NCBI GenBank assembly: GCA_028291765.1
Contig: JAQGNR010000009.1
Coordinates: forward strand, 3,223-67,222
Direction: 5' to 3'
Length of the DNA stretch: 64,000 bases
Origin: Herbaspirillum sp.
GTDB taxonomy: Bacteria; Pseudomonadota; Gammaproteobacteria; Burkholderiales; Burkholderiaceae_D
The position numbers and the translations under genes were made by a program. The notes under the pieces are model-generated. The model saw only the letters and a program-made list of their open reading frames with translations, did not search any database and was not told where the DNA came from. This document shows, in pieces, positions 22,080-28,881 of the stretch. Each line of letters starts with the position of its first letter. Position 1 is the stretch's first letter.

Positions 22080-23900
22080 TTATTTTATCTTCTTGAAGAT
22101 AAAATTTGTGCCGCCTGCATTGTCTATGGAAAGCGAATACAAGCAGCTATCCGTTACTAGCGGTGATTTCGATGAAACTACGGTAATAAATTTGCCAGTC
22201 CAGAAACTTAAAATTTCCGACCAATACCACTCTTCGAATGGCTGAGTGGTACGTTTTGCAATTTCATCTGCGGCATTCTTCGATACTGTAATAAAAATCC
22301 TATCATCCTGAATGTGATCATGGCCGATCATGGTTGACAGACTTCCTCCCAATGCTGCCACGCTTTGAATTGCGGGGTTGTCCCAGACCAACTGCTTTGT
22401 TTTTATTCCTTCCACACTTGTCAATCCAGAAACCGCGACTGCAAAGATGATCAGCACAGCAGTATTAATTTTTTCTTTTGAGATAAGCTTGCATGGCAAT
22501 ATCCAAGGTAGCACCGCAACGAACGCCAATCCAATGAATACAGCCGCTGCAATATATGTAAGGTTCGGTCCAATCAAGCCATATGCAATATTCGGTGCCA
22601 TGACCCAACTGAAGGTGATATATCCGGCGATTGGCCAAGGTGTTTGATTAAACAGCACCTGATGCGAGAAATAGGCCATAACCACAGACAACACGCCGAG
22701 AACTATAAATTTCACATAAAAAAACGTGGAACGCTTATTAGTCAGCAAATTATTAACTGCAGCAAATGCAATCGGTAACAACAAGCAAAAATTGAACATT
22801 GTGTATCGTTCACCGACTGACTGCTGCAAGTTCGTCACATCTACGTTAGCGATATGGTTGAGCGCTGCGAAATAATAATTAAAACTCCATATGTAGTGAG
22901 CGAAGAACATCCCCATCACCAGTACGAACCAAAACATGACACTCCTGTATCTGGCGCCTTGCCCGTTCGCTAGAGATGAATCTGGATCTCTGATGAAAAA
23001 AATCAGCATTGCCGGAAACAAAATTGGCAATATCGCGCAGATAGTAGCCGCTAGTTGCAGGATCGAATACACGAACAGAATGTATGGCGATTTTACGAAA
23101 GCATTTTCCAGGCCCACTAATTCCGGTAGAAATCCAAGAGCATAGTCAATCTGAAGACCTGAATACACTGCATAGGCAATCCAGACGCTCATCAGAGTCG
23201 AAAATGCGATGAACGCGATAATTAGCGGCCTGATACTTAACATAGTCCGGCTCAACAAAGGCAATCTTGGATCAGTCAATGCCAATTGCCTAAGTGCGAA
23301 AATGAGGACAGGGAATGGCGCTACAGGAAGGAACGAGAATTTGGTCAAATAATTGGCCGCAAGGCACAATCCAAAGATAATCGCGTTGGTTTTTTCATTT
23401 TTTCCAGATCGCAGCGCTAGATAGAATGCCGCCACTGTTAAAGTCACGGAAATATTCTCCGACATCACGGCCACAGGAAAGAAAAACTGGTACGGCACGG
23501 CACCGGCGACGATGGCTGCGCCAAGTGCGGCAGGTTTTGAAGAAATTTCTTTCGCTATTCCATAGACAGGGAACATAACAAGCGTTGCAGCAACGATGTT
23601 TGCAATTTTCATCGCGTGAATTTGATTCGTATTTGTGACCCACCCGACGATTGCCAAGAAAAATGGGTAGCCGGGCGGAAAGTGCGGGTCCGCCCCAAAT
23701 TTGTAATCGAAGTATTTGCTCACGACATATGGCTTGAATTCCATAATTCGTTGAGCAAACAGCTTGTAGATTATTTCATCACCCAGGACGGCCGGTCCTG
23801 AAGCGTTCCAAAGCAGGAAACACTTAAATATCACCCAAAAGGCAAACAATAACCAAAGTGCAGCTGCGATTAAGCGCTTCTCAATAATTGGAGTAGTCAT
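22080..23900 (-). CDS. GT-C fold membrane glycosyltransferase (ArnT/PMT_2-like)
   Basis: A 606-aa polytopic protein. It has a GDEIIY acidic motif after the first helix and a soluble C-terminal domain. It has an ATGA overlap with the upstream GT2. Confidence 0.7.
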   Translation of the reverse strand: MTTPIIEKRLIAAALWLLFAFWVIFKCFLLWNASGPAVLGDEIIYKLFAQRIMEFKPYVVSKYFDYKFGADPHFPPGYPFFLAIVGWVTNTNQIHAMKIANIVAATLVMFPVYGIAKEISSKPAALGAAIVAGAVPYQFFFPVAVMSENISVTLTVAAFYLALRSGKNEKTNAIIFGLCLAANYLTKFSFLPVAPFPVLIFALRQLALTDPRLPLLSRTMLSIRPLIIAFIAFSTLMSVWIAYAVYSGLQIDYALGFLPELVGLENAFVKSPYILFVYSILQLAATICAILPILFPAMLIFFIRDPDSSLANGQGARYRSVMFWFVLVMGMFFAHYIWSFNYYFAALNHIANVDVTNLQQSVGERYTMFNFCLLLPIAFAAVNNLLTNKRSTFFYVKFIVLGVLSVVMAYFSHQVLFNQTPWPIAGYITFSWVMAPNIAYGLIGPNLTYIAAAVFIGLAFVAVLPWILPCKLISKEKINTAVLIIFAVAVSGLTSVEGIKTKQLVWDNPAIQSVAALGGSLSTMIGHDHIQDDRIFITVSKNAADEIAKRTTQPFEEWYWSEILSFWTGKFITVVSSKSPLVTDSCLYSLSIDNAGGTNFIFKKIK

Positions 23901-24721
23901 TTGCCCTTTGGATTGTAGGCACCGAAACAGGCTTTGAAGAGTACTAGTAGTACCGATAGATTTCCTTTAAACGCGCTGATCTTGGTAGGCACTTCGTCTT
24001 TCGGATAACGTCGAATGGTGGGTAATTCTAGACAGCGATAACCAAGTTTGGGTGCGCGATACGAAAGGTAGGCCAAGAGCTCGTAGGTGTTGAACACATT
24101 TCGAAACGGCGAGACCTCAGTGTCTAACAGCATTTTCCTGCTGTAGGCTCGAAATCCTTGCGTCGTGTCAGTCCATCGAAATCCTGAAAATAAGCTCAAC
24201 ATAGGAGCATGGATAAAACGAATTGCGATATCACGTGATGTGGGCGTATTCTCTGCTATGCCGCCAGCGATGAAACGCGATGCCTGGACAAAATCTACAC
24301 CTTTATTGAGTGCATCAATGAAGCGCGGGATGGCCTCAGGATCATCCTTGTCATTCCCGTCGATCGTGATGATCCCCTCATAGCCTTGGTCAAGCGCAAA
24401 TGCATAGGCGCATCGGAGCTGCGCGCTCAATTTCCCAGCGCCAGTCTTGAGCAACATGCCGCTTACATTCTGCTGCTTCAAACCCTCTATTTCCAGTGAA
24501 CCGTCAATGCTGCCGCCATCAATGATGACAATGTCAGCGATTTTTTCGATTCCGACAGTGGTCATCCGGGCAAGCAGATTGCCAATTCGCCGCCCTTCAT
24601 TAATCACCGGAATTACGATGCACCACTGGTGTTTTCGGCCAAGCCATAACTTGCACTCAAAGGACGGGATCTGCCAATTGTTGCGATTCTCTGTGGGGAT
24701 GATCAAATTCATAGCTTTCAT
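23897..24721 (-). CDS. Glycosyltransferase family 2 (DPM1/Ppm1-like, no obvious TM segment)
   Basis: Contains CIVIPVINEGRRIGNLL...IVIIDGGSIDGS and ITIDGNDKDDPE. Confidence 0.7.
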   Translation of the reverse strand: MKAMNLIIPTENRNNWQIPSFECKLWLGRKHQWCIVIPVINEGRRIGNLLARMTTVGIEKIADIVIIDGGSIDGSLEIEGLKQQNVSGMLLKTGAGKLSAQLRCAYAFALDQGYEGIITIDGNDKDDPEAIPRFIDALNKGVDFVQASRFIAGGIAENTPTSRDIAIRFIHAPMLSLFSGFRWTDTTQGFRAYSRKMLLDTEVSPFRNVFNTYELLAYLSYRAPKLGYRCLELPTIRRYPKDEVPTKISAFKGNLSVLLVLFKACFGAYNPKGK

Positions 24722-24729
24722 TCGTGCAA

Positions 24730-27865: not shown

Positions 27866-27867
27866 AA

Positions 27868-28881
27868 TCAGGAAACGTGTTCGGAAAGAGCACTCGGGCC
27901 AGCAGCTGGCTCTTCAATGTTCAATTTCTCATTGCGGGTCATTCTGGCGCTCGTGAATTCTTGCCCTACATGGTAAAGCGGCCCTTCATTGGACAAGCTT
28001 GTCATGTGCAGAATGTATTCGCCGAGCACCAGCAAAACGAGTGATATGAGAAAAAACATGCCGGATTGCTGCAATGAGAGGCTGATCCAGCCGGGTGCCA
28101 CATCCTTTTTCAGAAATGCGATGGCGACAACATAGATTGTGTAAAGCACATTGGCGCTGGCGCCAAACAGGGATAGAGCAGTGACTAATCGCATCGGCGC
28201 GCGCGTAGTCGAAACCAGCAGTTTAATGCCTCGGTCGATACTTTCGCCCAATCGTTTCGGGCGCGCGCTTAAGGGTTTCGAATCGTAGTCCAGATTCACT
28301 TTCGCAAAGCCGCCGCTTGCAGGAAGATGGCGATACGTGATGGCAGGTTGCGGGTGCTGCAGAATGAAGTTCACGACTCTTTTTGTCAGAACCCTATATT
28401 GCGGCGCTTCTTTTGACAAATGGATGCTGTTGAACCATTTGTAGAGCCTGATAAAAATTGCATATGCCGTGCGATATGCCAGGCTCTGTTTGGCTTTCTG
28501 TCGATTATTAGCAAACACCACGTCGGCACCGCTGGCTGCCTTGTCCAGCATTTCGGGTAAGTAGCCTATATCATCTGCCAAGGGATCGATGACGGCTACG
28601 TAATCACCAAGGGCATTTTCCAGGCCAACCCAGGAAGCGGTATCTGTGTCGACTTCTTTTGTCAGCGCGTATATCTGCAAATTGGCTTGGCCACGTTCAC
28701 CCGTCAGCCTCTTCAAGACTGCAATGCTATCGTCGCTTGACGCATTGTCGACCACGATGAATTCGTAGTCGCTGACCAGGCATGAAATGTCAATTGCCGC
28801 ATCCGACAGGATTTTTTCAATTTTGTCCGCCTGGTTGCGTACAACGAATACAACGGACAGAAAAACGGGAAAAAACGCCAT
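27868..28881 (-). CDS. GT2 with two C-terminal TM helices (polyprenyl-phosphate glycosyltransferase type, GtrB/ArnC-like)
   Basis: Contains FLSVVFVVRNQADKI...FIVVDNASSDDS and hydrophobic segments LVTALSLFGASANVLYTIYVVAI and MFFLISLVLLVLGEYIL. Confidence 0.75.
   Translation of the reverse strand: MAFFPVFLSVVFVVRNQADKIEKILSDAAIDISCLVSDYEFIVVDNASSDDSIAVLKRLTGERGQANLQIYALTKEVDTDTASWVGLENALGDYVAVIDPLADDIGYLPEMLDKAASGADVVFANNRQKAKQSLAYRTAYAIFIRLYKWFNSIHLSKEAPQYRVLTKRVVNFILQHPQPAITYRHLPASGGFAKVNLDYDSKPLSARPKRLGESIDRGIKLLVSTTRAPMRLVTALSLFGASANVLYTIYVVAIAFLKKDVAPGWISLSLQQSGMFFLISLVLLVLGEYILHMTSLSNEGPLYHVGQEFTSARMTRNEKLNIEEPAAGPSALSEHVS

Follow-up and report, generated by a model that had tools for sequence, protein, structure and literature searches.

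A Coupled Seven-Gene Operon in a Polysaccharide Locus

Seven tightly coupled minus-strand genes occupy positions 28881-22080 of a 64,000-nucleotide stretch of DNA from Herbaspirillum sp. (GCA_028291765.1, contig JAQGNR010000009.1), referred to here as the window. The operon is part of a large polysaccharide locus that also holds gmd, rmd, wzx, many family 2 glycosyltransferases (GT2s), and methyltransferases. An initial annotation made from the letters of the sequence had read the operon as a module for remodeling a sugar on a lipid carrier. The analysis described here concerns the seven genes, the spread of their homologues, and the sugar that their products may make. In the order of the minus strand, the genes are:

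27868-28881, minus strand: GT2a, 337 aa; Pfam Glycos_transf_2
26708-27865, minus strand: DAO flavoprotein, 385 aa; Pfam DAO, 68.5 bits
25919-26707, minus strand: short-chain dehydrogenase/reductase (SDR)-like protein, 262 aa; without a Pfam or NCBIfam match
25083-25922, minus strand: triosephosphate isomerase (TIM)-barrel protein, 279 aa; Pfam AP_endonuc_2, 68.6 bits
24730-25086, minus strand: small multidrug resistance (SMR)-like protein, 118 aa; Multi_Drug_Res, 29.3 bits, and EamA, 28.5 bits
23897-24721, minus strand: GT2b, 274 aa; Glycos_transf_2
22080-23900, minus strand: GT-C, 606 aa; PMT_2, 29.5 bits (cut-off 26.1)

All open reading frames (ORFs) and every junction described in the initial annotation were found where it had placed them. 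As read from the sequence, ATGA overlaps lie at 25919-25922, 25083-25086, and 23897-23900, a TGAATG junction at 26707/26708, and a 2-nt gap at 27866-27867; in addition, 8 nt separate the SMR-like gene from GT2b (24722-24729), a gap that had been missing from that account. Pfam and NCBIfam scans supported the earlier family calls (two GT2s, DAO, AP_endonuc_2, Multi_Drug_Res/EamA, and PMT_2). The gene order given in its title was also right, but its text had named the protein with four transmembrane (TM) helices and the GT-C as the last two genes, whereas GT2b lies between them. A promoter and terminator scan gave counts at or below chance and was uninformative on operon boundaries.

Conservation, Exchange, and Mobility of the Cassette

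The SDR-like protein, the most distinctive member of the cassette, was used as the marker for surveys. It has >4,800 close homologues, which are ~75-78% identical across beta- and gammaproteobacteria. Its family comprises 573 clusters (50% identity, E ≤ 1e-30), and the marker is encoded in at least 568 species-representative genomes spread over many phyla. Gene content was counted by tblastn in the best 80 related loci, where many misses reflect loci that stop at a contig end. The TIM barrel was present in 80, GT2b in 76, the flavoprotein in 72, GT2a in 71, and the SMR-like protein in 63, the last at 69-88% identity. The loci follow few layouts, in which the flavoprotein and GT2a genes are always adjacent and diverge together. 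The association persists to ~32% identity in alphaproteobacteria, among which Cereibacter has a GtrA-family protein in the SMR place. A chance origin of the gene set is excluded, given that dozens of unrelated genomes carry it with its order unchanged. Co-conservation, the lack of which the initial annotation had named as grounds for abandoning its proposal, is thus strong.

The terminal gene follows another pattern. No homologue of the window GT-C was found by tblastn in any of the 80 loci. Of the 54 loci whose flanks are complete, 45 instead encode other large polytopic proteins at that place, between one and three per locus. Nine of ten sampled replacements lack a Pfam match, and they are classed as GT-C on size, TM count, and position only. 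The operon is a portable donor-synthesis block combined with an exchangeable, acceptor-specific transferase. A ~1057-1083-aa protein with 13-14 TM segments adjoins the cassette in many genera (L012, L013, L015, L018, L025, L033, L047, L055, L075, L078) and may represent an unclassified GT-C family; the one homologue scanned (1079 aa, L004) has no Pfam match. Some loci hold two or three large membrane proteins, an arrangement that would fit the building of an oligomer or polymer from the same lipid donor.

Mobile elements carry the cassette as well. The Psychrobacter plasmid pA22P4 (L011, 10.8 kb) contains little beyond the cassette and genes for mobilization and replication. In a temperate phage contig (L097), the full cassette lies between lysis genes and a CI-like repressor, and on the E. 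coli plasmid pCUPF09A it is found in a prophage remnant, flanked by a phage lysozyme gene on one side and what remains of an integrase on the other. Temperate phages carry these genes as a lysogenic-conversion cassette.

The Flavoprotein, the YxxxR Reductase, and the TIM Barrel

The flavoprotein family displays an invariant GGGxxG, E38, and the motif R46-A-S-x-x-N-Q-A-R-x-H-x-G-Y-H-Y-P-R-S. An AlphaFold model of the window protein (predicted local distance difference test score, pLDDT, 82.9; predicted template modeling score, pTM, 0.83) retrieved glycerol-3-phosphate oxidase (2rgo) and E. coli GlpD (2qcu) as the best PDB folds (TM-score 0.76), followed by L-2-hydroxyglutarate dehydrogenase and glycine oxidase. 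GlpD and GlpO oxidize a secondary hydroxyl on the carbon adjacent to a phosphate-ester carbon. The C2-OH of a hexosyl-1-phosphate ester would offer the same local geometry, and the flavoprotein is proposed, on the strength of the modeled fold, to oxidize this secondary hydroxyl of a glycosyl phosphate ester.

The next gene product had been described initially as a Rossmann reductase-like protein with YGLHR where YxxxK is expected. It has no match in Pfam or NCBIfam, adh_short included, but it does align to extended SDRs with YGLHR on YxxxK. The best PDB match of the family profile is dTDP-4-dehydrorhamnose reductase (8g22, E 2.6e-5), which places YGxxR on YGxxK. In 10 sequences down to 37% identity, G7xxG10xxG13, S84/T85, and Y109-G-x-x-R113 are invariant, and YxxxR accordingly reads as a fixed Lys-to-Arg replacement, not as decay. 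Foldseek matches of the structural model are all GalE, RMD, or RmlD; this model (pLDDT 61) derives from a shallow alignment, is weak, and was used for fold class only. R27/S28 follow strand 2, where no acidic residue is present, which by the general SDR rule suggests NADP(H) as the cofactor. The proposed role is an NAD(P)H-dependent ketone reduction of the type performed by RmlD-like keto-sugar reductases.

The TIM-barrel protein retains an intact E-D-H-E metal/catalytic site that aligns with that of D-psicose 3-epimerase, with E150, D184, H208/H210, and E245 invariant. Its profile matches ketose 3-epimerases (E ~1e-11), the 3-keto-D-glucoside 4-epimerase YcjR (6wn6, 1e-6), and IolI in the PDB. 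The best NCBIfam score was 35 bits against cut-offs of ~300, with the IolO epimerase model matched by 10 of 10 members and the IolE dehydratase model by 6 of 10. Reaching no named equivalog cut-off, the protein belongs to an unnamed subfamily. It is proposed to form an enediolate beside the new carbonyl and then to eliminate the 4-OH by a conjugate-base mechanism (E1cB).

Gene fusions connect all three enzymes. P0355 is a single-chain TIM::DAO::SDR triple fusion, P0279 is a DAO::SDR fusion, and SDR::TIM fusions occur in P0286, P0368, P0383, and giant-virus metagenome-assembled genomes (MAGs). Such fusions imply that the three enzymes act on one substrate. In P0282 (587 aa), the SDR-like domain is fused to an NAD-dependent Gfo/Idh/MocA dehydrogenase that takes the place of the flavoprotein, a replacement that fits hydroxyl oxidation as the first step. 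The flavoprotein, the SDR-like protein, and the TIM barrel, hereafter the trio, almost certainly constitute one functional unit.

Two GT2s, a Putative Flippase, and a GT-C

The initial annotation had assigned the synthesis of an undecaprenyl-phosphate-sugar to GT2a on account of two C-terminal TM helices. These helices were recovered by a hydropathy scan at residues 236-254 and 268-286, completing an architecture of a GT-A domain, juxtamembrane helices, and the C-terminal pair. Residues 6-306, TM helices included, align with Synechocystis GtrB (5EKP, E 1e-13), and the best curated NCBIfam matches are PgfS and ArnC. Across the family (75 members), DPL, DHQ, or SIE stand at the position of the GtrB DAD motif, and PQYR, TGLR, or TGSL at that of GDFR; the E. 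coli-type GT2a additionally lacks the first nucleotide-binding Asp. With the DXD motif and the Asp of GDFR absent in every subtype, GT2a is an unlikely donor synthase. The assignment probably fails for this GtrB fold without a DXD, and GT2b is the better candidate. As a guess, we propose that GT2a assists the flavoprotein and GT2b as a partner or scaffold in the membrane.

GT2b gives its best NCBIfam matches to AglJ, dolichyl-P-hexose transferase, ArnC, and PpgS and its best PDB match to the Pyrococcus dolichol-phosphate-mannose (DPM) synthase 5mlz. Invariant in its 78-member family are PVINEG, DGGSxDGS, IDGNxKD (DADLQ in DPM synthase), SRf..GG...NTP..R, TDTTqGfRaYS, and R.YP...PTKI. GT2b is probably the polyprenyl-phosphate sugar synthase of the module, of the DPM-synthase/AglJ/PpgS type. 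Two fusions involve this gene: the Psychrobacter plasmid encodes GT2a::GT2b in one 592-aa ORF, and in Cereibacter GT2b is fused to a PMT_2 GT-C domain. These were the only ones confirmed among long ORFs obtained by upstream extension, most of which were high-GC artefacts. The first half of the Psychrobacter ORF is absent from the gene table of the plasmid database.

The four soluble proteins of the cassette have no TM segments and no signal peptides in a hydropathy scan, from which it follows that their chemistry would precede flipping. The SMR-like protein has four TM helices and matches the NCBIfam ArnE/ArnF models at ~27 bits, below their cut-offs. Drug-exporting SMRs need the residue equivalent to Glu14 of EmrE, a position at which the window protein has N13-A14-S15. 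It is proposed to flip the finished polyprenyl-phosphate-sugar to the periplasmic face. The GT-C, with at least 11 TM segments by hydropathy and D41-E42-x-x-Y directly past the first of them, resembles PMT_2/ArnT proteins and is proposed to transfer the sugar in the periplasm from the lipid donor to an acceptor glycan. A small flippase candidate and a GT-C, which the initial annotation had read as the flippase and periplasmic transferase of Gtr/Arn-type systems, are both present, and the module is probably of the Gtr/Arn type with extra redox and enolizing enzymes.

That the cassette feeds a GT-C decorating a surface glycan is very probable. Acceptor identity is not readable from sequence, and the PMT_2 family includes both ArnT and protein mannosyltransferases, such that the sugar could instead be added to lipid A or core, as an Arn-like charge modification, or to proteins by PMT-like O-glycosylation. 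We regard an acceptor other than O-antigen or a related polysaccharide as very improbable. In the window the operon lies in a polysaccharide locus, the E. coli and Citrobacter copies described below lie in the O-antigen region, the GT-C is exchanged together with the O-antigen cluster, and carriage by phages fits conversion of an O-antigen receptor.

A Correlative Link to 4-Deoxy-D-arabino-hexose

Six E. coli chromosomes were found by a distant DNA search to carry the cassette between gnd and ugd, beside wzm/wzt genes annotated as the O89/O101/O162 family. Identities of the E. coli proteins (L006) to those of the window, determined by tblastn, are 63% for the SDR-like protein, 55% for the TIM barrel, 74% for the SMR-like protein, 67% for GT2b, 42% for the flavoprotein, and 25% for GT2a. 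All six core genes therefore have orthologues in one E. coli unit. In the same chromosomal place, Citrobacter, a genus known for 4-deoxy-D-arabino-hexose, carries a cassette (flavoprotein 85% identity) beside another O-antigen cluster and with another terminal membrane protein. In three of the six E. coli chromosomes, the flavoprotein gene has an IS4 insertion sequence (IS) at its 5′ end, changing the product from 371 to 357 aa; the serotypes of these strains are not confirmed.

The O162 antigen consists of O101 with a side-branch of 4-deoxy-D-arabino-hexose (Liu et al. 2019, PMC7685785). The gnd-ugd genes of the two serogroups are near-identical, the exception being the gene that directly follows gnd, which an IS interrupts in O101 (PMC7685785). 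Liu et al. 2019 called the pathway for the sugar unknown and proposed, untested, that the gnd-ugd genes make and transfer it (PMC7685785). A 2026 paper restates the proposal as a hypothesis (PMC13168486), and a 2024 paper describes synthesis of the sugar in Franconibacter pulveris as "unclear" (PMC11231755). The initial annotation had known of no described pathway with this gene set, a view that must be revised: Liu et al. 2019 had already flagged the set as a candidate for this sugar, without a mechanism. In the literature searched, no mechanism, gene-to-step assignment, distribution or mobility, fusions, or viral relatives were found for the gene set.

The tie between the cassette and 4-deoxy-D-arabino-hexose is a correlation only. 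Homology with the corresponding genes of E. coli O162 and Citrobacter makes 4-deoxy-D-arabino-hexose or a close relative the most likely product of the window cassette, and we put the chance that the product is a 4-deoxyhexose at even or slightly better. The optional keto-epimerization considered initially is replaced by deoxygenation with stereochemical resetting, since the homologous O162 genes tie to a deoxysugar; the oxidation and reduction that framed it are kept.

Epimerization by redox chemistry nevertheless deserves consideration. Following the logic of DprE1/DprE2 or YcjQRS, the flavoprotein would oxidize, the TIM barrel epimerize, and the reductase restore the hydroxyl, yielding a rare hexose epimer on the carrier without deoxygenation. 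The 4-deoxy sugar of O162 would then belong only to the divergent type found in E. coli or have another origin. The TIM profile is indeed nearest to ketose 3-epimerases and YcjR, both catalytic Glu residues are kept, the window and E. coli flavoproteins share little more than two-fifths of their residues, and DprE1/DprE2 provide a precedent for FAD- and NADH-dependent epimerization on a carrier lipid. On the other hand, the active-site residues of the TIM barrel and the SDR-like protein are invariant in all subtypes, which argues for one chemistry, and E. coli O162 offers no alternative candidate genes for its 4-deoxy sugar (PMC7685785). A single bifunctional SDR epimerase is enough elsewhere (ORF13, PMC11127046), and three enzymes suggest that more is done here. 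As a further objection, the TIM superfamily includes E1cB dehydratases with the same metal site. IolE and dehydroshikimate dehydratase are examples of these. Epimerization without deoxygenation is accordingly judged improbable.

Proposed Pathway

Under the favored deoxygenation, the target structure limits where oxidation can begin. 4-Deoxy-D-arabino-hexose differs from glucose at C2 and C3 and from mannose at C3 only. Loss of the 4-OH without pyridoxamine phosphate (PMP) or radical chemistry would need a carbanion at C3 or C5. Oxidation of C2 would generate the carbanion at C3, beta to the 4-OH, in a form that the TIM-barrel superfamily stabilizes as an enediolate, and oxidation at no other position would place it there. 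Oxidation of C3 first was considered and rejected because the 3-keto carbanion would expel the ring oxygen or phosphoprenol; a route beginning at C6 was likewise rejected, as it would not reset C2 and C3. Glucose and mannose converge on the same 2-ulose, and the starting hexose could therefore be either. With one nicotinamide reductase and a net two-electron reduction, the simplest scheme has the flavin electrons returning, at C2 or as a hydride to the enone C4, in parallel to the recycling of NADH by 4,6-dehydratases.

For the gene products identified above, we infer the following chemistry. GT2b, held at the membrane with the DXD-less GT2a, would move mannose or glucose from a nucleotide to undecaprenyl phosphate (Und-P). 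The GlpD-like flavoprotein would then oxidize the C2-OH, next to the phosphate-ester carbon, after which the TIM barrel would take H-3 via a metal-bound 2,3-enediolate and expel the 4-OH by E1cB elimination, giving a 4-deoxy-2,3-diulose or its enol. The RmlD-like reductase, together with the returned flavin electrons, would reduce this intermediate and reset C2 and C3 to the arabino configuration at a net cost of one NAD(P)H. Finally, the SMR-type protein would flip the Und-P-sugar, and the host-specific GT-C would move the sugar to a glycan. We hold the full mechanism to be an even bet in outline and less than that in its details. The same balanced expectation applies to the view of the operon as a self-contained, horizontally mobile cassette that builds a remodeled hexose on undecaprenyl phosphate for periplasmic addition as a side-branch to O-antigen or a related polysaccharide.

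Lipid-Linked or Nucleotide-Linked Substrate

The trio could also act before the sugar reaches the lipid. In such an Arn-like route, a soluble nucleotide sugar such as GDP-mannose or UDP-glucose would be remodeled to an NDP-4-deoxyhexose, which GT2b would load onto Und-P in the manner of ArnC, followed by flipping and GT-C transfer. Viral relatives of the trio bear on this question. IMG/VR contains 56 viral contigs with a relative of the marker, of which 41 have the flavoprotein adjacent or near and 38 the TIM barrel; among the 56, only the temperate phage L097 has GT2a, the SMR-like protein, and GT2b, and 40-odd contigs carry trio relatives without them. Relatives occur in ~20 giant-virus MAG contigs. 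Two of these (L111:8936-13233 and L115:9995-15704) encode a DAO-like flavoprotein and an SDR::TIM fusion (532 and 514 aa, respectively) adjoining GT47 exostosin-like and PLOD-type glycosyltransferases of the Leloir type. In a T4-like contig (L098:148-8575), DAO-SDR-TIM genes (2017-4569) lie amid those for a dCMP deaminase, a C5 cytosine-methylase-like protein, UvsX, and a DnaB-like helicase, where the trio may remodel a sugar for DNA hypermodification rather than for a glycan. The viral relatives cannot use undecaprenyl phosphate, and the trio is a separable sugar-remodeling unit: occurring in viruses without carrier-lipid genes, it is not intrinsically tied to lipid-linked substrates. Action of the flavoprotein, reductase, and TIM barrel on soluble or non-sugar substrates, which the initial annotation had said would count against its proposal, is supported in part by the distant phage and giant-virus relatives.

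A nucleotide-linked substrate is further favored by the closest solved relatives of the SDR-like protein, all of which act on nucleotide sugars, and by the invariant DGNxK of GT2b, which could reflect an unusual donor. Citrobacter O-antigens have 4-deoxy-D-arabino-hexose in the main chain, and such a chain built in the cytoplasm would need a nucleotide donor. Yet in bacteria the trio hardly ever occurs apart from carrier-lipid genes, even at ~32% identity, whereas pairings with Leloir glycosyltransferases would be expected if it made a nucleotide sugar. The flavoprotein gene always adjoins and co-varies with that of the GtrB-fold membrane protein. The SDR-like protein, at 262 aa, is also short compared with the ~300-340 aa of nucleotide-sugar SDRs.

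Operons of Duganella and Dyella (L043:7822-16540 and L048:7755-18376) add to the case for a lipid-linked substrate. GT2a-DAO-SDR-TIM genes are followed there by a canonical polyprenyl-phosphate-type GT2 and by homologues of DprE1 and DprE2, along with an FkbM methyltransferase and a large membrane protein. The DprE1 homologues score 313 bits on NF053785 over the full length, and the DprE2 homologues 162-183 bits. To our knowledge, DprE1/DprE2 homologues are known only on polyprenyl-phosphate-sugars, and the two operons suggest two successive remodeling steps on one carrier-linked sugar. Because the bacterial trio so rarely parts from carrier-lipid genes, the flavoprotein gene stays tied to that of a GtrB-fold protein, and DprE1/DprE2 homologues share the operon in two genera, we consider it likely that the substrate is lipid-linked rather than nucleotide-linked; remodeling at the nucleotide level is a rather unlikely alternative.

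A number of observations count against the pathway on Und-P as a whole. The SMR-like protein went undetected in 17 of the 80 loci, the role of GT2a is a guess, and GT2b has DGN in place of a canonical DXD. The structure model of the SDR-like protein is poor, and this protein resembles nucleotide-sugar enzymes, while the nearest characterized relatives of the TIM barrel are epimerases and not dehydratases. The trio exists without GT2, SMR, and GT-C genes in phages and giant viruses, beside Leloir-type glycosyltransferases or DNA-metabolism genes. The tie to the E. coli sugar is correlative and comes from a review, with strain serotypes not confirmed, and because the window flavoprotein and GT2a are the members that differ most from the E. 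coli type, the product could differ as well. Literature searches by enzyme name found nothing, and those by the name of the sugar found no biosynthetic study of 4-deoxy-D-arabino-hexose; neither biochemistry nor a mutant for any member of the set was found in the literature searched.

In its broadest form, which we put forward tentatively, the trio would be an uncharacterized set of three enzymes that together remove the 4-OH from glycosyl phosphate esters. In bacteria its substrate would be an Und-P-sugar and its membrane platform a catalytically dead GtrB fold. Temperate phages would have acquired versions of it for seroconversion, T4-like phages possibly for modifying DNA with sugars, and giant viruses would have taken up others.

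Comparison with Known Systems

The closest counterparts are the E. coli O101/O162 and Citrobacter sets, which share the gene families, the SDR-TIM-SMR-GT2b order, the location in a surface-polysaccharide locus, and natural IS knock-outs. Relative to the E. coli set, the window flavoprotein and GT2a are divergent and swapped in order, and the two sets end in unrelated membrane proteins; the role of the E. coli set is itself a hypothesis without assigned steps.

Synthesis and use of mycobacterial decaprenyl-phosphate-arabinose involves a UbiA-type DPPR synthase, the FAD oxidase DprE1, the SDR DprE2, the SMR-type flippase Rv3789, and GT-C arabinosyltransferases. Flavin oxidation of a C2-OH and nicotinamide reduction on a polyprenyl-phosphate-sugar, followed by a small flippase and a GT-C, are established there and proposed here. 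The initial annotation had drawn this parallel while assuming non-homologous families, and the enzymes are indeed unrelated. The window flavoprotein did not match the DprE1 model NF053785 in the NCBIfam scan and has a DAO/GlpD fold rather than FAD_binding_4/ALO (vanillyl-alcohol-oxidase), and the reductase is an RmlD-like extended SDR rather than a classical adh_short protein. The analogy remains apt, with true DprE1/DprE2-family genes sharing the operon in Duganella and Dyella. The proposed pathway further differs in a GT2-made donor from a nucleotide hexose instead of phosphoribosyl pyrophosphate (PRPP), in an additional TIM-barrel step, and in a likely deoxygenation in place of C2 epimerization only.

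GtrABC of Shigella and Salmonella phages and the Arn system (ArnC/D/E/F/T) share with the cassette a GT2, a small flippase, and a GT-C, as well as carriage by temperate phages beside immunity or integration genes. ArnD exemplifies further modification of a sugar after loading onto Und-P. Gtr systems move unmodified glucose, whereas the cassette has a GtrB homologue without a DXD, three extra enzymes, and no deformylase or aminotransferase. By analogy, the system would work like a Gtr/Arn-type three-component glycosylation with DprE1/DprE2-style redox chemistry on the carrier.

Oxidation of a ring hydroxyl, metal-dependent enolization by a TIM barrel, and reduction also recur in YcjS/YcjR/YcjQ and IolG/IolE. 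The outcome of enolization in these enzymes is epimerization (YcjR) or beta-elimination of water (IolE). Both pathways serve catabolism, have free glycosides or inositol as substrates, and employ NAD-dependent Gfo/Idh/MocA dehydrogenases, which among the present relatives are represented only by P0282.

The three-component pentofuranose systems of Citrobacter youngae O1/O2 also add a side-branch to an O-antigen in the periplasm after polymerization, from an Und-P-sugar, with a GT-C acting last (Kelly et al. 2024, PMC11127046). Their ORF13 is an auxiliary cytoplasmic SDR epimerase thought to act on a lipid-linked sugar (PMC11127046). They rely on a UbiA-type phosphoribose synthase, a MATE flippase, GT136, and a single canonical YxxxK SDR, in place of which the cassette has two GT2s, an SMR-like protein, and the flavoprotein, TIM barrel, and YxxxR SDR of the trio.

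Neighboring Genes in the Window

Directly upstream of the operon (29048-33335, minus strand) lies what looks like a second, separate set for periplasmic glycosylation:

31665-33335, minus strand: 556-aa polytopic protein without a Pfam match
31127-31558, minus strand: GtrA-family protein
30258-31130, minus strand: zinc-ribbon methyltransferase
29048-30034, minus strand: GT2

On the other side, directly past the GT-C stop, short plus-strand ORFs (21196-21995) include a helix-turn-helix transposase-like N-terminus (an IS21-like fragment). Situated between the cassette and the gmd/rmd genes, they look like the scar of a horizontal insertion. The latter region holds two GDP-mannose 4,6-dehydratase genes and an rmd-like reductase gene (15899-16984, 18545-19447, and 19390-20424), the rmd-like gene overlapping one gmd by 58 nt. 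On the opposite strand, a GT2 ORF (17635-18492) matches its Pfam profile from position 18 of 168 and is fragment-like. The region makes GDP-mannose-derived 6-deoxy sugars and bears signs of rearrangement.

Farther along, plus-strand genes at 34755-40734 for an ATP-grasp ligase, an amidohydrolase-like protein, an RraA-like aldolase, a class I/II aminotransferase, and a DegT-type sugar aminotransferase probably form a pathway for an N-acylated amino sugar. The GC content of the window falls from ~0.59 at 1-4 kb to 0.40-0.50 from ~8 kb on, with a minimum of ~0.40 at 32-34 kb, a profile typical of a horizontally acquired polysaccharide island.

Implications

The scheme presented here is a complete, testable gene-to-step proposal for 4-deoxy-D-arabino-hexose, which occurs in O-antigens of E. 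coli O162, Citrobacter, and Franconibacter. If true, it would establish a third route to deoxysugars, beside the 4,6-dehydratase route and the routes based on PMP and radical S-adenosylmethionine enzymes. It would likewise provide a second, non-homologous case of carrier-lipid redox chemistry in the style of DprE1/DprE2, as well as an instance in which the GtrB fold has been reused without its transferase site. Portable donor genes combined with an exchangeable GT-C are attractive for glycoengineering, and the IS on/off variants matter for O101/O162 serotyping and for vaccine design. The cassette is common and mobile, and it is probably a frequent driver of variation in surface antigens and phage receptors.

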